This document shows, one piece after another, positions 1 to 6,425 of a stretch of DNA of 6,425 nt. The DNA is from a virus (taxonomy: Duplodnaviria > Heunggongvirae > Uroviricota > Caudoviricetes), in the IMG/VR virus record IMGVR_UViG_2703718859_000020. One strand, written 5' to 3'. A program made the translations under genes and the position numbers. Under the pieces are notes generated by a model, which searched no databases, had not been told where the DNA came from, and was given only the letters and a program-made list of their open reading frames with translations. The stretch's first letter is position 1. Each line of letters starts with the position of its first letter.

Positions 1-1230
1 ATGAGCAGAGCACTTAACAAACTGAGCGATACACAGCTGAGGAAAATCAACGGCACACCCGCCCAAAAAACAGCCTTTCTTAATGACGGTGGAAACCTGA
101 GCGTCAGGCATTCAACCAGTGGCCTTTTAACCTGGTATTTCACTTACAGGGCCGGAACGGGAAGGGGGGCACCACCGGAACGCATTAAGCTGGGAAATTA
201 TCCTGATCTGAGCCTGAAATCAGCCAGGGAAAAAGCCGCCCAGTGTCGCGCATGGCTGGCAGAGGGGAAAAATCCACGTCATGAAATGAATTACACCGTA
301 CAGGAAGCGTTAAAGCCGGTAACGGTTGGCGATGCGCTCACCTACTGGCTTGAGTCGTACGCAAAGGAAAACCGTGTGGATTATGACCCACTGAAAAAGC
401 GGCTAAATAATCACGTAATACAGCACATTGGCCCTATGCCGCTGGATAAATGCGAGCTACGGCACTGGCTGGCCTGTTTTGATCGGGTGGCAAAGAAAGC
501 CCCTGTTTCCGCCGGGTTCCTGCTACAGACATGCAAGCAGGCGCTTAAGTTCTGCAGGAAGCGGCGCTATGCAATCAGCAACGTTCTTGATGATATGAGT
601 GTGGCGGACGTTGGGAAAAAACCGGATATAAGTGAGCGTGTCTTAAGTAACAAAGAACTTGGCGAATTATTGCAGGCACTGGACAAAAAAATATTTTCCC
701 CTTACTACGTCGCACTAATCCGCCTCCTGATTGTTTTCGGATGCCGGACAGTAGAACTGAGGTTATCGGAGATCGGCGAGTGGGATTTTACCGAAATGCT
801 CTGGACCGTTCCGAAGGAGCACAGCAAAACGAAGGTAGCCATATTCCGGCCCATACCGGAAGCGATACTGCCGTTCGTCACGCAGCTGGTGGAGCAGAAC
901 AGGCACACGGGCTTATTGCTGGGGGAAGTGAAACAGGAAACCAGCGTATCGCAGTACGGCAGATTGGTGCACAGGAGGCTTAAACACCCTCACTGGTCAC
1001 TGCATGACATCCGGCGCACCTTTACAACCATGCTGAACGATTTAGGCGTTGATCCTCACGTCGTGGAGCAGCTTACAGGCCACCAGATGCCAGGAATGCA
1101 ACGCGTGTACAACCATTCCCGCTATATTGATGCGAAACGCAATGCGCTTGATATGTGGGTGGAGCGGTTGGAGATACTGGCGGGAACACATGAAAACGTA
1201 ACCACGCTACCAGTAACCAGAATAAAATAA
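1..1230 (+). CDS. int: Tyrosine recombinase, P4/CP4-57-type phage integrase (409 aa, apparently complete)
   Basis: Full-length ORF from ATG at 1 to TAA at 1228-1230. C-terminal catalytic signature of tyrosine recombinases: Arg in ...VFGCRTVELR..., His-x-x-Arg in ...LHDIRRTFTT..., and GH...VYNHSRY with the terminal Tyr nucleophile. N-terminal region (KLSD...NDGGNL...WYFTYR) resembles the arm-binding domain of P4-type integrases. Confidence 0.9.
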   Translation: MSRALNKLSDTQLRKINGTPAQKTAFLNDGGNLSVRHSTSGLLTWYFTYRAGTGRGAPPERIKLGNYPDLSLKSAREKAAQCRAWLAEGKNPRHEMNYTVQEALKPVTVGDALTYWLESYAKENRVDYDPLKKRLNNHVIQHIGPMPLDKCELRHWLACFDRVAKKAPVSAGFLLQTCKQALKFCRKRRYAISNVLDDMSVADVGKKPDISERVLSNKELGELLQALDKKIFSPYYVALIRLLIVFGCRTVELRLSEIGEWDFTEMLWTVPKEHSKTKVAIFRPIPEAILPFVTQLVEQNRHTGLLLGEVKQETSVSQYGRLVHRRLKHPHWSLHDIRRTFTTMLNDLGVDPHVVEQLTGHQMPGMQRVYNHSRYIDAKRNALDMWVERLEILAGTHENVTTLPVTRIK

Positions 1231-1604: not shown

Positions 1605-1793
1605 GTGTTAAGCACTGATCGGTTTATACGTGAAAAAGAATGCGAAAAGCTAACAGGCCTTAGCCGCTCATGCCGCTACCGCCTGGAAAAGGCCGGACAA
1701 TTCCCATCACGTCGTAAACTTGGCGGGCGTTCTGTTGGCTGGTCTTTATCTGAGGTTTTGGCCTGGAAGGATAGCTGCAAGGCAGTTCACTAA
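1605..1793 (+). CDS. alpA: AlpA-family (phage_AlpA / MerR-like HTH) transcriptional regulator, 62 aa
   Basis: GTG start at 1605 preceded by a strong SD (GAAAGGGGG, 1592-1600). The protein (RFIREKECEKLTGLSRSCRYRLEKAGQFPSRRKLGGRSVGWSLSEVLAW) matches the AlpA pattern of an HTH followed by a conserved G-W...E-W segment. Position immediately after a P4-type int is typical. Confidence 0.85.
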   Translation: MLSTDRFIREKECEKLTGLSRSCRYRLEKAGQFPSRRKLGGRSVGWSLSEVLAWKDSCKAVH

Positions 1794-1857: not shown

Positions 1858-1973
1858 GAATAAACGCCATAATACTGAGGTATAACCATGATGAAATATA
1901 CGCCCGTACAGGGGCGGGGATTCGTTCGCCCTGGTGAATCTGAAAAGCCATGCTATAGGGTATTTTCAGGCAT

Positions 1974-2003
1974 AAAAAAAGCGGTCCCGATATGGAACCG
2001 CCT
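1974..2003 (-). terminator. Rho-independent terminator for the minus-strand cassette transcripts
   Basis: Stem GCGGTCCC (1981-1988) / GGAACCGC (1995-2002), 7 of 8 bp paired, loop GATATG. On the minus strand it is followed by a run of 7 U (plus-strand A-run 1974-1980). Located 66 nt downstream of the cassette B second gene. Confidence 0.55.
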
Positions 2004-2069
2004 TTCTGAACAATTAACCCGCTGCGCCGTATGTGTCAACAATCATAAGCCCGAACATGATAACCGTGA

Positions 2070-2273
2070 TCAGGCTGGTGGGCAATTACCTTGCTTGTTG
2101 GGGCCGTATTGTGCTGCCATTTTCATCCGTTCAGAACGTGAATATTTTTTTAGAAACTCATCAAGGACAAAAGCGCATGGAGCGAATCTTTCTGATTCAT
2201 GCTCGAGCGCCATATTTTCGTGCTCTCTGTTCGTTTTTTGCGATGGTGTATTGGTTGATTCTTTATTGGTCAT
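2070..2273 (-). CDS. Small protein of unrecognised family, 67 aa (cassette B, gene 2)
   Basis: ATG at 2271-2273, stop at 2070. Paralogous to the 2787-3014 ORF: shared MTN start and motif F-x-L-[DE]-[DE]-F-x-x-K-Y-x-R (FVLDEFLKKYSRS vs FALEDFVDKYPRR), with the same 57-nt spacing from the upstream RHH gene. Weak SD. Confidence 0.45.
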   Translation of the reverse strand: MTNKESTNTPSQKTNREHENMALEHESERFAPCAFVLDEFLKKYSRSERMKMAAQYGPNKQGNCPPA

Positions 2274-2330
2274 TGTGTGTACCTGTAAAGCAATGCGCCG
2301 TAGTACCTCACGCCACGGCGCTGATAGTAA

Positions 2331-2510
2331 TTATTCTGATTCTTTGGCCTTGCGGCGCTGGCGGCGTTTGATCTCGCCTTTTGCTGCCGTAACTAGAAAT
2401 CCGGCGGTACTTTCGCCAGGTTCTTTAAGTTGCTCAATATCGGTCATTACCTCATGCGGGATTCTGACCGTTGTCATTTGTGATTTTGCGTTCTTTGCAC
2501 CTGTTGCCAT
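2331..2510 (-). CDS. Ribbon-helix-helix (CopG/Arc/MetJ-like) DNA-binding protein, 59 aa (cassette B)
   Basis: ATG at 2508-2510 with SD AGGAG 8 nt upstream. Sequence MATGAKNAKSQMTTVRIPHEVMTDIEQLKEPGESTAGFLVTAAKGEIKRRQRRKAKESE shows the RHH pattern: N-terminal beta-strand (TTVRIPHEV), helix A, a G-E-S-T turn, helix B, and a basic tail. The six-frame track extends this ORF to 2735, but the internal ATG with the SD is the supported start. Confidence 0.7.
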   Translation of the reverse strand: MATGAKNAKSQMTTVRIPHEVMTDIEQLKEPGESTAGFLVTAAKGEIKRRQRRKAKESE

Positions 2511-2530
2511 TTCTGGTTCTCCTGATAATC

Positions 2531-2623
2531 GGTGTATTTCAGTATACGCAAAAAAAAAGATAAAAAAAGTCTTGCGGTGTATTTCACCTGAATGTAGATT
2601 TAAAAATGAAGGTGAAATACACC
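2531..2623 (-). promoter_or_regulatory. Cassette B promoter with three copies of operator motif GGTGTATTTCACC
   Basis: Minus-strand -10 TATACT (plus 2541-2546) about 31 nt upstream of the start codon; the -35 is poor (T-rich). Motif copies at 2531-2542, 2576-2588 and, inverted, 2611-2623; the last two form a perfect 13-bp inverted repeat with a 22-bp spacer. Confidence 0.5.
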
Positions 2624-2634
2624 CAAAACAACAA

Positions 2635-2678
2635 CGCCCCGCAGTGATGGGAACACATACGGGGCGTCTAACCAAACC
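2635..2678 (-). repeat. Conserved GC hairpin (CGCCCCG-N18-CGGGGCG) followed by TCTAACCAA, upstream of the cassette B promoter
   Basis: Read directly; a homologous element lies upstream of the cassette A promoter (3385-3427). On the minus strand the hairpin is followed by a T-rich tract (TTGTTGTTTT). Confidence 0.4.
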
Positions 2679-2747
2679 ATTAATTGAGGTAACGATTATG
2701 GCTATAAAAGAGCATAGCTTACTCTTTATACACACACAAACGCCCCG

Positions 2748-2767
2748 GAAACGGAATAATCCGTTTC
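2748..2767 (-). terminator. Weak hairpin after cassette A gene 2 (GAAACGGA-ATAA-TCCGTTTC)
   Basis: 8-bp stem with a 4-nt loop, 20 nt downstream of the stop at 2787. Only a weak T-rich tract follows on the minus strand. Confidence 0.3.
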
Positions 2768-2786
2768 ATAGTTCGGTTTTGTGCAC

Positions 2787-3014
2787 TCATCCTGGCGGTC
2801 GGTTTTTGCCGGATTTAAGCCGCCGTGGGTATTTATCGACAAAATCTTCAAGGGCAAATTTTTCTGGTGGCACTAAGCGCGGCGCTGGTGGTGGTATTTT
2901 TGTTCTGGTTAGTTCTTCCTCAACTCTGGCGCAGGCTTCTGACTGCCTTTGCCGGATGATTTCATCATCTTGCGTTTGCGTGTCTTGTATTGGTGATAGT
3001 GTGTTGTTGGTCAT
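2787..3014 (-). CDS. Small protein of unrecognised family, 75 aa (cassette A, gene 2)
   Basis: ATG at 3012-3014, 57 nt after the RHH stop; paralog of the 2070-2273 ORF (same motif and position). Weak SD (AGGG). Confidence 0.45.
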   Translation of the reverse strand: MTNNTLSPIQDTQTQDDEIIRQRQSEACARVEEELTRTKIPPPAPRLVPPEKFALEDFVDKYPRRLKSGKNRPPG

Positions 3015-3071
3015 GATACTGCCCTGTAAAGCAATGCGCCGTAGTACCTCACACCACGGCGCTGATAGTGA

Positions 3072-3251
3072 TTATTCTGATTCTTTGGCCTTGCGACGCT
3101 GGCGGTATTCAACTTCCCGCTTTAATGCAGCTGTAACAAACTGCCCTGTACTTTCGCCGGGCATTTTTACCGCCTCAACATTGTTCATAACTTCATGTGG
3201 AACCCTTGCCGCAACTGTTTGTGATTTTGCGTTTACTGCTTTTGTCGCCAT
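3072..3251 (-). CDS. Ribbon-helix-helix DNA-binding protein, 59 aa (cassette A)
   Basis: ATG at 3249-3251 with SD GAGGGG 8 nt upstream. MATKAVNAKSQTVAARVPHEVMNNVEAVKMPGESTGQFVTAALKREVEYRQRRKAKESE is 36/59 identical to the cassette B RHH protein and has the same length and RHH pattern. Confidence 0.7.
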   Translation of the reverse strand: MATKAVNAKSQTVAARVPHEVMNNVEAVKMPGESTGQFVTAALKREVEYRQRRKAKESE

Positions 3252-3280
3252 GTTGAGCACCCCTCATAAAAAACAAATGC

Positions 3281-3353
3281 AGTATGCAGGAAAAAAAACA
3301 AGTGTTCAACACTTGACGTGTTTAACACCTCGATTTAAATTGGTGTTCAACAC
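3281..3353 (-). promoter_or_regulatory. Cassette A sigma70-like promoter overlapped by three palindromic operators GTGTT-N-AACAC
   Basis: Minus-strand -35 TTGAAC (plus 3304-3309), 17-bp spacer, -10 CATACT (plus 3281-3286), about 30 nt upstream of the start codon. 11-bp palindromes at 3302-3312, 3318-3328 and 3343-3353; the first overlaps the -35. Confidence 0.5.
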
Positions 3354-3384
3354 CTTATTTAGGCAAGGTGTAGAAACGACGAAA

Positions 3385-3427
3385 CCCCGCACTGTAGGAG
3401 CAGTAACGGGGCTTCTAACCAACAACG
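3385..3427 (-). repeat. Conserved GC hairpin (CCCCG-N17-CGGGG) followed by TCTAACCAA, upstream of the cassette A promoter
   Basis: Homolog of the 2635-2678 element, in the same position relative to the promoter. Confidence 0.4.
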
Positions 3428-3634
3428 TAAACGAGGAGCCGTTATGGTTGCCGTAAATCATATACCACACCTTGTACACACACAAACGGCCTTTGTGTGG
3501 CGTTTTCTGGCACTGAGTGCCGGAGAATCTCAAATAATCCACGTAACCGCCTGGACGGAACGCGAAGCACGTAACCGTTGCCCGTCAGGTTGTGTTGCTG
3601 TATTCGCCGCCCGTATTCGCCAGGGGGTAGGCTT

Positions 3635-3868
3635 ATGAGCCAGGAAATCACACTACAACAGGCAGCAGAACGCGCCCACCAAATCGAAGTTATTTGCGCA
3701 CTGGCAGAGGATTACCCTGGCATGATGACCGACAGCGAATCAGGGGCAATCATCGGCTTACTTAAACGCCTTAGCGGTGAGGTCTGCGTATTCCTGAGCG
3801 ATGAACAGGAAAGAAGAACGCTTATTTCTAACGAAAAAAAATGCGGAGGGGTACACCATGTGCAATAA
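3635..3868 (+). CDS. Small helical protein, 77 aa, first gene of the replication-side operon
   Basis: ATG at 3635 with SD AGGGGG 7 nt upstream. The track ORF 3578-3868 has an earlier start with no SD. Its stop overlaps the next ORF's start by 11 nt. Confidence 0.5.
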   Translation: MSQEITLQQAAERAHQIEVICALAEDYPGMMTDSESGAIIGLLKRLSGEVCVFLSDEQERRTLISNEKKCGGVHHVQ

Positions 3869-4094
3869 CATCCGTCCGGACGCAGCCGCCGAAGCCATCA
3901 TAACGCTAATGCATGCGCTGATTGATATTTCTGTTATTGCTGACAAGGCGCATAAGCACGCCACCAGTGAAACAGAATATGCAGGGGCTTTCGTTCCTCA
4001 TTCGCTGGCGGTTATGCAACTTAGTGCTGATATGGCGCTGAATGAGGCAGGCAAAATTCTTACCGCAGATATTCAAGGGGCGCACCATGCATGA
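3858..4094 (+). CDS. Small helical protein, 78 aa, apparent paralog of the flanking ORFs
   Basis: ATG at 3858 with SD GGAGGGG 6 nt upstream. Shares a ...S-E-x-x-x-AGAF[VI]-x-x-[SL]L... motif and a preceding [AW]L-x-D-x-S segment with the 4087-4302 ORF. The start could instead be 3801 (no SD). Confidence 0.5.
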   Translation: MCNNIRPDAAAEAIITLMHALIDISVIADKAHKHATSETEYAGAFVPHSLAVMQLSADMALNEAGKILTADIQGAHHA

Positions 4095-4302
4095 TGACCG
4101 TTATTTTAAATTAATGAGCCATGCAGAAAACGCACTGACTAACAGTGAATGCTTGCGGAAAATATTGCTTATCTGGCTTGATGGTTTAAGTGATGCGCCG
4201 GAAGGTGAACGTGAATCTAATCTTGCTGGTGCGTTTATTTCATTACTCGATACGGTAATCACCGAATTAAATAAAGCGATCGAAATTCACGATAAAAAAT
4301 AA
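4087..4302 (+). CDS. Small helical protein, 71 aa, apparent paralog of the 3858-4094 ORF
   Basis: ATG at 4087 with SD AAGGGG 6 nt upstream; ATGCATGA overlap with the previous stop. Contains NLAGAFISLL, matching YAGAFVPHSL in the previous ORF. Confidence 0.5.
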   Translation: MHDDRYFKLMSHAENALTNSECLRKILLIWLDGLSDAPEGERESNLAGAFISLLDTVITELNKAIEIHDKK

Positions 4303-4318
4303 ACGCGGAATAAAAACC

Positions 4319-4618
4319 ATGAAAAAGAAAATTTCTGGCTTAACTGCTAGTGGCAACACTCACCCTAAATTTACGCGCGGCGATATTTACCGCGACCAGT
4401 ACGGCGGCACGGTAACGATTAAAGGTGTAGAAGAGCGACGCATTACCTACCGCCGTGAAGGCTACGAATATGACTGCGTGATGCCTGTTTATCAGTTCCG
4501 GCGTGATTTTTCTCTGGTACAGACCGCGCCGCATAACGTGCCCACCAGCAGGGAGAAAGCACGCGCCAATATTCAGAAGATGAAAAACATGATTAACGGA
4601 TTCAGGGGCAAGAAATGA
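4319..4618 (+). CDS. Hypothetical protein, 99 aa
   Basis: ORF whose stop overlaps the rep start (ATGA at 4615-4618), suggesting translational coupling. Weak SD. No family recognised. Confidence 0.45.
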   Translation: MKKKISGLTASGNTHPKFTRGDIYRDQYGGTVTIKGVEERRITYRREGYEYDCVMPVYQFRRDFSLVQTAPHNVPTSREKARANIQKMKNMINGFRGKK

Positions 4619-6012
4619 AAAGCGCACCGAACTTAAAAAAACAGCCTTACGACAAGATGACCGAAGTCATCATTTTTGCGGGTAGTGATGCGTGGGCACA
4701 TGCGAAACAGTGGCAGGAACAGGACGGGCGACTGGCTGGCGATAATGTGCCTCCCATTGTGCTGGCTGATGATCAACTGGATGAACTGGCAGACCTGAGA
4801 ATCATCGACGAGGGGCGCTATTGTGTCCGGCTGTACAAGGCAGGCCACATCAGGCCATCAAATATTAATGCCATTGCGCACAAGCTGGCGGCGGCGGGCG
4901 TAACTGATGCGAATTATTACCCCGAAGGGATACACAGCCAGAAGCGGGAGAACTGGCGCGAATATCTGGAACGGGAGCGGGGGAAAAAGCCAGGGGAAGA
5001 ACACCACCAGCGAAAAACCACGCTACCGATGAGCGTTGGATCTGCCGGATACGACACGCAATTAGATTACGTGGTAAAGGGGATTATTCCGGCATCGTCG
5101 CTTTGCAGCATATACGGGGCGAGCGGTTCCTATAAATCATTCCTTGCGGGTTCGTGGGCGTGTCACGTTTCCACGGGCCGCCAGTGGGGAGGCCGCAGGG
5201 TGGCGCATGGCGCTGTTCTCTATGTGGTTGGTGAAGGCGGTATCGGCGTTCCGCGTCGTGTAAAAGCCTGGGAGGTTGTGCACGGTGAGCAGGTGAAAAA
5301 TCTGTATCTGGTAAACCGTCCCATCTTTCCGGCGGTCCCGCTTGATGTTGATGAAATGGTTATCGCTGCCCGTCAGGTGGAGCGGGAAACGGGTAAACCT
5401 GTACGCATGATTATTCTGGATACGCTGGCGCGTTGCTTTGGTGGGAATGATGAAAATGATTCCCGTGATATGGGGGCGTTTATCCGTGGTTGTGACGAAC
5501 TGAAACGACGCACAGGGGCCACGGTGCTGGTGGTTCACCATTCCGGCAAGGATGAGACGAAAGGCGCGCGCGGTTCCAGTGCATTTCGTGCATCACTGGA
5601 TGCTGAATACCGGATACGCAGGGAGGACGCAGGAAGCGAAGCGCTGGTTATCTCATGCACCAAAATGAAGGACGCGGAGGAACTCAAAGAGGCTGCCTAT
5701 GATTTGCGGGTGGTGGAGCTTTTTACCGACGCTGACGGGGAGTTAATCACGTCGCTGGTGGTGGTGGATAAGCCGCGCCCTCCCGTTGAACTGGAGCGCA
5801 TCGAGGAGGCAGGGAACAAGACGGAAAACCATACCGCGCTATGGGGGTGCATCCGTTCACGCACACAGAACGGCGACAAGTGCACGATCCCGCTGTTACG
5901 TGATGACATGAAAAAACTGGGGTATGAAATGAAAAACTTCCGGCGCTGGCTGTACAAGCTGGAAAAAGATGGGGTTATTCGTATCGATGGGGATGATGTA
6001 GCGCCGCTATAA
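4615..6012 (+). CDS. Replication-associated RecA-fold P-loop ATPase (RepA / AAA_25-like helicase or initiator), 465 aa
   Basis: SD CAGGGG 6 nt upstream. Walker A-like SIYGASGSYKSF (residues ~165-176, deviant with Tyr where the second Gly is expected), Walker B VRMIILDTLAR (~263-273), and VLVVHHSGKD typical of RepA/DnaB-like proteins. N-terminal ~150-aa domain and a basic C-terminal ~70-aa region consistent with a DNA-binding winged helix. Confidence 0.8.
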   Translation: MKSAPNLKKQPYDKMTEVIIFAGSDAWAHAKQWQEQDGRLAGDNVPPIVLADDQLDELADLRIIDEGRYCVRLYKAGHIRPSNINAIAHKLAAAGVTDANYYPEGIHSQKRENWREYLERERGKKPGEEHHQRKTTLPMSVGSAGYDTQLDYVVKGIIPASSLCSIYGASGSYKSFLAGSWACHVSTGRQWGGRRVAHGAVLYVVGEGGIGVPRRVKAWEVVHGEQVKNLYLVNRPIFPAVPLDVDEMVIAARQVERETGKPVRMIILDTLARCFGGNDENDSRDMGAFIRGCDELKRRTGATVLVVHHSGKDETKGARGSSAFRASLDAEYRIRREDAGSEALVISCTKMKDAEELKEAAYDLRVVELFTDADGELITSLVVVDKPRPPVELERIEEAGNKTENHTALWGCIRSRTQNGDKCTIPLLRDDMKKLGYEMKNFRRWLYKLEKDGVIRIDGDDVAPL

Positions 6013-6203
6013 AAGTGAGGAGCAAAAGCGAGGGGGGTAGAAAGAGGGCCAAAATTAGCCTGCTCTCCCTCACTTTTCGACCTGTATACATCCTCAAAAG
6101 TGAGGGGTAAAAAAATACTTATGAAACACACACATAGAAAAACCAAAAATCCCAACTGCGACGAAGTGAGACGCTTGAAAAAGTGAGGCAAAAAAGTGAG
6201 AGG
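6011..6203. repeat. Iteron cluster: candidate replication origin immediately 3' of rep
   Basis: Copies of AAAGTGAGG or close variants at 6012-6020, 6025-6033 (AAAGCGAGG), 6097-6105, 6163-6171 (GAAGTGAGA), 6180-6188 and 6194-6202, plus an inverted copy CTCCCTCACTTTT at 6065-6077. The two sets flank an AT-rich segment (about 6106-6160). Confidence 0.6.
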
Positions 6204-6212
6204 TTGCGAGAA

Positions 6213-6425
6213 ATGACCCAAAAACGCAGAGACAGAACAGAGCCGAAATATAAGGCGTTAGATATGGCTGAACTGGCTTTAAAGGTGGCAATCAGAACGA
6301 TAGACCGCCACGCGGGGGAAGGATACGCGAAAGCACATCCCGAACTGATAAGCGCATTCATGACCACGACGGCGGCAAATTTTGCCACGCTGACAGAGCG
6401 GGAGATTGCCGAAGCGGAACAGGTA
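6213..6425 (+). CDS. Hypothetical protein, 5' part only (runs off the window end)
   Basis: ATG at 6213 with GAGAGG upstream; open frame for 71 codons to the window edge (MTQKRRDRTEPKYKALDMAELALKVAIRTIDRHAGEGYAKAHPELISAF...), with ordinary helical-protein composition. Not in the supplied track because it has no stop inside the window. Confidence 0.45.
   Translation, partial: MTQKRRDRTEPKYKALDMAELALKVAIRTIDRHAGEGYAKAHPELISAFMTTTAANFATLTEREIAEAEQV

Follow-up and report, generated by a model that had tools for sequence, protein, structure and literature searches.

The replication gene considered here lies in a 6,425-nt stretch of DNA from IMG/VR virus record IMGVR_UViG_2703718859_000020 (this whole stretch is called the window), and the described systems that come closest to it are the helicase RepA of RSF1010 and the replication modules of phage-inducible chromosomal islands (PICIs), which are phage satellites. 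RSF1010 RepA (PDB 1G8Y/1NLF/1OLO) has a RecA-fold core of helicase superfamily 4 (SF4) and is a bare motor that is loaded by a separate initiator, RepC (PMC8965321). For EcCICFT073, the prototype E. coli PICI from strain CFT073, whose replication protein is a Pri-Rep (Fillol-Salom et al. 2018, PMC6092414), it has been reported that the segment containing rep and the origin (ori) supports plasmid replication and that expression of AlpA sets off replication of the island (PMC6092414). In capsid-forming PICIs (cf-PICIs) of the EcCIEDL933 type, capsid and packaging genes are encoded by the satellite itself in an island of about 10-15 kb, with a layout of capsid, protease, portal, connectors, HNH, TerS and TerL (bioRxiv 10.1101/2022.09.08.507074).

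Comparison with these systems identifies the window as the left arm of a phage satellite of the PICI/cf-PICI type, with the order int, alpA, DUF4222, rep and iterons (Table 1). Our best explanation of the whole, to which we give a probability of about 0.8, is that it carries an enterobacterial PICI/cf-PICI replication module in which the tyrosine found in the P-loop of Rep makes a naturally occurring and selected form of Walker A, the ATPase probably being active. Both int and alpA lie upstream of rep and all are on the plus strand, as is characteristic of PICIs, and the int-alpA order is repeated in locus L001, which is a cf-PICI, and in EcCICFT073. L001, the closest match in E. coli over the full region (96.4% nucleotide identity across 4319-6012), sits between roxA and phoQ, and continues beyond rep with ssb, perC, major capsid, prohead protease, portal, head-tail connectors, HNH, TerS and TerL, thus combining the module of the window with the cf-PICI packaging layout; the copy in the window is assigned by homology to it. 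EcCICFT073 occupies the same roxA-phoQ site and has the order int-alpA-...-DUF4222-rep, the same N-terminal domain of Rep, the same 4-nt ATGA overlap and iterons in two sets, but its motor is of the D5_N+DUF5906+Pox_D5 kind (SF3, 584 aa) instead of AAA_25 (SF4), and its iteron words differ accordingly. Other carriers of the Rep of the window have differing right arms, some of them being shorter PICI-like islands. Part or all of the DUF4222+rep stretch was matched in 1,676 of 5,426 complete E. coli genomes, where RefSeq names the products 'DUF4222 domain-containing protein' and 'helicase RepA family protein'; because of these names and this frequency the module is ordinary as far as annotation is concerned, and the locus is of a known kind.

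Rep is a member of the RepA family of RecA-fold ATPases. An earlier reading of the DNA made without database searches (the sequence-only reading) had described a 465-aa open reading frame (ORF) here and had attributed it to a RepA-like ATPase; the ORF was located exactly as described, and the family was borne out by the RefSeq name and by hidden Markov model searches, in which Rep matched Pfam AAA_25 (PF13481) with an E-value of 1.9e-43 and 148.8 bits (cutoff 27) over aa 146-314. The profile phrog_2850 matches Rep over its full length, and a profile search of the PDB gave RSF1010 RepA as the best solved relative (E 1.5e-14). The K, E, D, HH and R residues follow in the same order in the two proteins and align residue by residue, including the Walker B and HH motifs that had been noticed at first, and the E, D, HH and R residues found in Rep are the catalytic set listed for the RepA cluster (PMC8965321). 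We also considered a non-replicative ATPase family and rejected it: matches to RadA, RAD51 and KaiC were far weaker than those to AAA_25/RepA, and searches with defence-system profiles gave no match to Rep or to the DUF4222 protein. Rep is built of three parts, the ATPase core being preceded by an N-terminal domain and followed by a C-terminal winged helix. In an AlphaFold2 (AF2) model of full-length Rep, built from just 21 fairly similar homologues, the predicted local confidence score (pLDDT) is 82-93 for aa 1-120 and 75-93 for aa 400-465, and falls below 50 in parts of the core that include aa 146-171. Unlike RSF1010 RepA, Rep has an extra N-terminal domain and a winged helix that is probably its own origin reader.

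A further difference from RSF1010 RepA concerns the P-loop, which is the canonical GGAGKS in the latter and GSYKS in Rep. In gap-free HMMER alignments, Tyr173 (5131-5133) takes the place of the conserved second glycine and is aligned with the glycine just ahead of Lys in RSF1010 RepA (SPGGAGKS), RAD51B (GPPGCGKT) and RadA (GEFGSGKT), Lys174 and Ser175 being kept, and the canonical Walker A pattern GxxxxGK[ST] is absent from Rep. The sequence-only reading had noted this tyrosine and had allowed that the motif might become canonical once gaps were placed correctly; the gap-free alignments uphold the former point and dispose of the latter, because with Tyr immediately before Lys no regapping could restore a canonical P-loop. 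The motif is therefore non-canonical, but it is by no means peculiar to this protein. Tyr is found in all 120 of the closest database clusters, down to 58% identity, all of which read G[AP]SGSYKS. When 1.84 billion cluster representatives were searched, 32,830 matched Rep at E<=1e-3, and the best 150 of these were taken for a census of the P-loop, which 142 of them cover. Position 173 is Tyr in 45, Phe in 34, Gly in 49, Leu in 7, Cys in 3, Ala in 3 and Arg in 1 of the 142. The composition changes with rank, from Tyr 30, Phe 16 and Gly 2 at ranks 1-50, through Gly 16, Phe 14, Tyr 14 and Leu 6 at ranks 51-100, to Gly 31 with few aromatics at ranks 101-142. As 79 of the 142 nearest representatives have Tyr or Phe, the aromatic P-loop is a state of the subfamily and is no reason to exclude Rep from the RepA-like family.

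The remaining catalytic residues are intact in the aromatic class. K174, E207, D269, H308, H309 and R319 are invariant wherever aligned in the 79 Tyr/Phe representatives (76-79 of 79, the rest being gaps), and the same residues are present in 49/49 representatives of the Gly class. Proteins with a Tyr/Phe P-loop include fusions to Zn_Ribbon_Prim+Toprim_3, DnaB_N and PriCT_2, and the isolated Vibrio phage 1.210.O has the Tyr P-loop YGPGGSYKSF in a helicase annotated as DnaB-like (L093, 1033-2517); the Gly form occurs in Caulobacter phage GB2A and mycobacteriophage Rich, and also in RepA, the only close solved relative. Fitch parsimony on a crude neighbour-joining tree gave about 23 state changes in 139 sequences with Gly at the root, which is a rough figure. 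The columns that differ most between the classes are 381 (Leu in the aromatic class vs Cys/Ala in the Gly class) and 336 (Arg vs Lys). The interchange of Tyr, Phe and Leu together with conserved chemistry suggests that the side chain most likely packs against the protein, where its candidate partners are positions 336 and 381, and takes no part in the chemistry, and that Rep with its Tyr P-loop is most likely an active ATPase. The Tyr P-loop is not an error, and it is most likely not the mark of a dead enzyme. MCM, an active hexameric replicative helicase with the Walker A motif GDPxx[AS]KS, also naturally has a residue other than Gly before the P-loop Lys. This is an analogy only; MCM is an AAA+ and not a RecA-fold protein, and the residue before its Lys is a small Ala or Ser and not a bulky aromatic.

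The same tyrosine might also be viewed as the sign of a weakened or gated ATPase, in which Tyr or Phe partly occludes or reshapes the phosphate cradle and hydrolysis is slow until DUF4222, a neighbouring subunit, single-stranded DNA or origin DNA re-positions the loop, so that the P-loop would serve as a brake on replication. Few positions of Walker A are as strongly conserved as the Gly before Lys, which would fit such a role, and this Gly was present in all solved relatives found. DUF4222 is moreover strictly ATGA-coupled to rep (77/77 loci, see below), and a brake would be of use given the toxicity of PICI replication that runs out of control (PMC6092414). This view nevertheless seems improbable to us, as the unit formed by DUF4222 and the N-terminal domain of Rep is also found on SF3 and DUF927 motors with their own different P-loops, so that DUF4222 is not tied to the Tyr loop in particular. 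In addition, helicases with Tyr/Phe occur in phages and in primase fusions with no DUF4222 seen nearby, and the switching between Gly and aromatic residues, which happens about 20 times on the crude tree, is more what one would expect of a tolerated, near-neutral site than of a special regulatory device. An ATPase that is active with a packed aromatic side chain remains the reading that we prefer.

The N-terminal domain, which shows a b-a-b-a-b-a-b pattern in the AF2 model, raises the question of whether Rep is also a primase. Relatives of Rep of the T7 gp4/P4 alpha type, 52-69% identical to it in the ATPase core, are primase-helicases fused to Zn_Ribbon_Prim+Toprim_3 with an EGYATA-like motif, and these fusion proteins also have the Tyr P-loop. 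The N-terminal domain of Rep stands where they have the zinc ribbon and Toprim_3, and could accordingly be a working minimal Toprim primase that would make Rep a true primase-helicase (pri-rep). Some databases do call homologues 'DNA primase', local likenesses can be seen between VIIFAGSDA and ILIAEGYATA and between ENWREYL and ADWDDY, and one of 13 homologues of the domain matches Toprim_3 with an E-value of 0.015 (Pfam at E up to 10). We regard this possibility as very unlikely. No Pfam profile, those for Toprim, PriCT and the zinc ribbon included, matched the N-terminal domain of Rep, and neither a profile search of the PDB nor Foldseek against the PDB returned anything for it. Against nine real Toprim_3 segments of relatives, hhalign gave probabilities below 1%, with only the short ENWREYL/ADWDDY match, and Smith-Waterman comparison with shuffles gave z-scores below 1.5. 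Toprim-bearing relatives read ILIAEGYATA...IIIAADND; in Rep an invariant Ala22 (VIIFAGSDA) occupies the position of the Toprim Glu of EGYATA, and A76-G77, in an Ala-Gly-x run, occupy that of DxD. The domain is not demonstrably Toprim, and Rep lacks the zinc ribbon, the catalytic Toprim residues and a primase RNA-polymerase subdomain. Of the two acidic segments in which a Toprim-like character had been suspected, EVIIFAGSDAW and IVLADDQLDE, both are present, but the second is not conserved: most homologues have LGxxQL, and neither D52/D53 nor the acidic run 52-58 is conserved. The primase interpretation of the N-terminus is thus not supported, and we consider a degenerate Toprim ancestry of the domain possible and a catalytic primase activity of Rep unlikely.

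Directly upstream of rep, the 99-aa ORF that had been described as ending in an ATGA shared with the start of rep is exactly as reported, and it is a real, conserved gene. Its product matches Pfam DUF4222 with an E-value of 2.9e-24 and 84.8 bits (cutoff 27) over aa 16-68, and comprises a Tudor/SH3-like five-strand barrel (aa 23-68) followed by a long basic C-terminal helix (aa 77-97). PHROGs holds one full-length family for this protein and another for Rep, both of 'unknown function', and no paper that gives DUF4222 a function was found in a literature search. At the junction, AAGAAATGAAAAGC, the ATG of rep (4615-4617) overlaps the TGA of the DUF4222 gene (4616-4618). DUF4222 was used to retrieve 80 IMG/VR loci; an ORF follows it in 77 of them, in every case at offset -1 (ATGA) and with the N-terminal domain of Rep. 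The junction is kept in L003, L004, L006, L007 and EcCICFT073, and it persists where the identity of Rep falls to 58-67%. The genetic coupling of DUF4222 with rep is thereby firmly shown, and the suggestion in the sequence-only reading that the 99-aa protein may be a coupled accessory subunit is plausible. Within the first 20 codons of rep there is a terminator-like hairpin at 4656-4671 (GATGACCGAAGTCATC then ATTTTTGCGG); five terminator-like sites were seen in the region, with 3.8 expected by chance.

The N-terminal domain recurs on other motors. In E. coli satellites, three kinds of otherwise unrelated replication protein begin with this 125-aa domain, which is 64-81% identical between them and is shared by other proteins too: the AAA_25 (SF4) type of the window (465 aa), the D5_N+DUF5906+Pox_D5 (SF3) type of EcCICFT073 (584 aa) and a DUF927 type (714 aa). 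The motor joined to it in the 77 IMG/VR loci is D5 in 41, AAA_25 in 32 and DUF927 in 3, and one locus has the N-terminal domain only. DUF4222 and the N-terminal domain of Rep form a constant unit that recombines with different motors, and our best guess is that its role is adaptor or regulatory and not catalytic. Rep loci that share the domain include L006 (5288-7042), L007 (5288-7432) and L092 (14242-15996), to be compared with 4615-4989 of the window; the recombination joint lies just past the domain.

DUF4222 could go further and be an obligatory subunit of the initiator, for instance a loader or clamp that sits on the N-terminal domain through its C-terminal helix, and without which Rep could not open the origin. 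The ATGA coupling is invariant and DUF4222 accompanies the N-terminal domain whichever motor follows; a helical tail of 30 residues distinguishes the satellite form from the 59-aa form of phages, which lacks it; and in three lambdoid phages of Escherichia/Klebsiella a 59-aa DUF4222 ORF stands directly before the gene of an O-type initiator and overlaps its start. On the other hand, tight linkage by itself would hold both genes together, the barrel has a generic Tudor/SH3 fold and its best matches are to proteins that bind RNA polymerase and not helicases, and the replicon test of EcCICFT073 is described as rep plus ori only, the presence of DUF4222 in the clone not being stated. In the lambda-like prophage of CFT073 at icd, furthermore, the DUF4222 gene (L091, 10192-10431) adjoins the excisionase gene xis, within the early-left region and at a long distance from the genes for replication, so the family is not confined to replication modules. 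On balance we think an obligatory subunit rather unlikely, and an adaptor or regulatory unit remains our preferred view of DUF4222 and the N-terminal domain. The phage 59-aa ORFs (L002, 3980-4159; L008 and L009, about 2980-3160) are placed between a cII-like gene and the O-type initiator gene; they are unannotated in all three phages, and two of the records annotate an ORF on the opposite strand there.

Immediately 3' of rep lies a probable origin of replication. AAGTGAG occurs 7 times in the window vs 0.53 expected, a count that none of 200 shuffles reached, and six of the copies fall in 6013-6200, in two groups around an A/T-rich stretch at about 6105-6160. Two sets of iterons around an A/T-rich stretch just 3' of rep are the layout of E. 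coli PICI origins (PMC6092414). Among the 80 IMG/VR loci the type of iteron is specific to the type of Rep: AAA_25 proteins are followed by AAAGTGAG or AAAGTGGG (AAGTGAG/AAGTGGG), D5 proteins by GGTAGACA/GGTAGATA and DUF927 proteins by GGGACAAC. Within the AAA_25 type, as compared across loci L010-L089, L003 and L004, residue 441 of the winged helix tracks the iterons, being Asn in all 18 loci with GTGAG iterons, the window included, His in all 16 loci with GTGGG iterons, and Ser in a single Enterobacter-type locus (L003) whose repeats are GTGCGGC. These correspondences provide good circumstantial evidence that the winged helix may be what reads the iterons.

We propose the following mechanism for the module. 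On induction of a helper phage, AlpA would switch on a rightward polycistronic operon, as the literature on sister elements suggests, and DUF4222 and Rep would be translated from the overlapping ATGA codons. The C-terminal winged helix of Rep would then recognise the AAGTGAG iterons just downstream of its own gene, as the covariation implies, and the RecA-fold, RepA-type motor would assemble into what is presumably a hexamer on the A/T-rich stretch that separates the iteron groups, and would unwind DNA at the expense of ATP. Because Rep has no recognisable primase, priming is left to host or helper enzymes in this scheme, and these would also carry out synthesis.

Several observations weigh against the overall reading. 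The Rep that was tested experimentally, that of EcCICFT073, is a D5-type sibling and not of the AAA_25 type, and the window stops at 6425, short of the packaging genes, so that the label cf-PICI is given to this copy by homology only. Regarding the P-loop, biochemical data on any member with Tyr/Phe were not found in a literature search, an open-access search with aromatic P-loop motif strings returned no relevant text, and the difference at columns 336 and 381 could come from shared ancestry. The AF2 model is poor exactly at the P-loop (pLDDT <50, aa 146-171), because of which the packing of the tyrosine is argued solely from the interchangeability of residues and the two covarying columns. 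As for the iterons, two Salmonella loci with Asn441 have a mixed iteron set, and the correlation comprises few independent events because the loci are closely related.

Table 1. Positions in the window of the genes, protein motifs and origin elements of the satellite replication module
Feature	Position	Strand	Basis or remark
Tyrosine integrase gene (int)	1-1230	+	Pfam Phage_integrase, Arm-DNA-bind_3
AlpA regulator gene (alpA)	1605-1793	+	Pfam Phage_AlpA
DUF4222 gene, 99 aa	4319-4618	+	Pfam DUF4222 (PF13973)
Shine-Dalgarno-like AGGGG	4604-4608	+	Six bases upstream of rep ATG
ATGA stop/start overlap DUF4222/rep	4615-4618	+	Read from sequence
rep, 465-aa RepA-family (SF4, RecA-fold) replication initiator-helicase	4615-6012	+	AAA_25, phrog_2850, RSF1010 RepA
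Rep N-terminal domain, aa 1-125, alpha/beta fold	4615-4989	+	AF2
Walker A/P-loop GASGSYKS, aa 168-175	5116-5139	+	Gap-free HMMER alignments
E207, motif 1a (VVGEGG)	5233-5235	+	Alignment to RSF1010 RepA
D269, Walker B (MIILDTLAR)	5419-5421	+	Alignment to RSF1010 RepA
H308-H309, motif H3/HH (VVHHSGK)	5536-5541	+	Alignment to RSF1010 RepA
R319, Arg finger (ARGSS)	5569-5571	+	Alignment to RSF1010 RepA
C-terminal winged-helix domain, aa ~400-465, probable iteron reader	5812-6009	+	
Asn441, winged helix	5935-5937	+	Start of last predicted helix (K-x-F-R-R-W-L)
Probable origin of replication	6011-6205		Six AAGTGAG iterons directly 3' of rep
AAGTGAG iterons	6013, 6069 (inverted), 6098, 6164, 6181, 6194		
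Degenerate iteron AAGCGAG	6026		

The rest of the window was also examined. No sigma-70-like promoter was found across 3400-6425, which agrees with one long operon. An Rfam search of the window gave no match, nor did a megablast of the phage collection with the DNA as query, the relatives there being found at the protein level only. Upstream of the DUF4222 gene, three small overlapping plus-strand ORFs (3578-3868, 3801-4094 and 4042-4302) belong to PHROG families of unknown function and in position match the genes that are annotated as 'Icd-like cell division inhibitor' and as hypothetical in sister islands. Two genes of the YlcI/YnfO family, the minus-strand ORFs 2331-2735 and 3072-3260, are carried by a diverged duplication whose copies (2263-2387 and 3004-3128) are about 741 bp apart and share 82% identity over 125 nt; the 522-aa plus-strand ORF at 1888-3456 is antisense to both genes and looks like a non-coding artefact. 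Just past the iterons, a plus-strand ORF starts at ATG 6214 and leaves the window at its end (6214-6425), and what follows rep in sister loci is a small hypothetical gene and ssb.

What appears to be undescribed, in a locus of an otherwise familiar kind, is the clade with an aromatic P-loop, the correspondence between Asn/His/Ser and the iterons, and the presence of the DUF4222+N-domain unit on three motors. The first and the last of these raise a twofold possibility that we put forward tentatively, holding it to be less probable than not: that a large clade of RecA-fold replicative helicases, found in satellites, phages and primase-helicase fusions, is active with Tyr/Phe in place of the Walker A Gly, and that the DUF4222+N-domain unit works as an adaptor independently of the motor and links satellite replication with a host or helper factor. 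A bulky aromatic before the P-loop Lys is the majority state in the nearest relatives, alongside intact catalytic residues and real primase domains. If the clade is indeed active, it would imply a P-loop conformation or a mode of nucleotide binding that is absent from solved structures, and Walker A rules for calling ATPases 'dead' would misjudge its members. The pairing of Asn, His and Ser at residue 441 with GTGAG, GTGGG and GTGCGG offers a testable code of protein-DNA recognition, which may bear on the replication specificity or incompatibility of co-resident satellites, and the occurrence of the DUF4222+N-domain unit on three motors points to a common step in the control of satellite replication.

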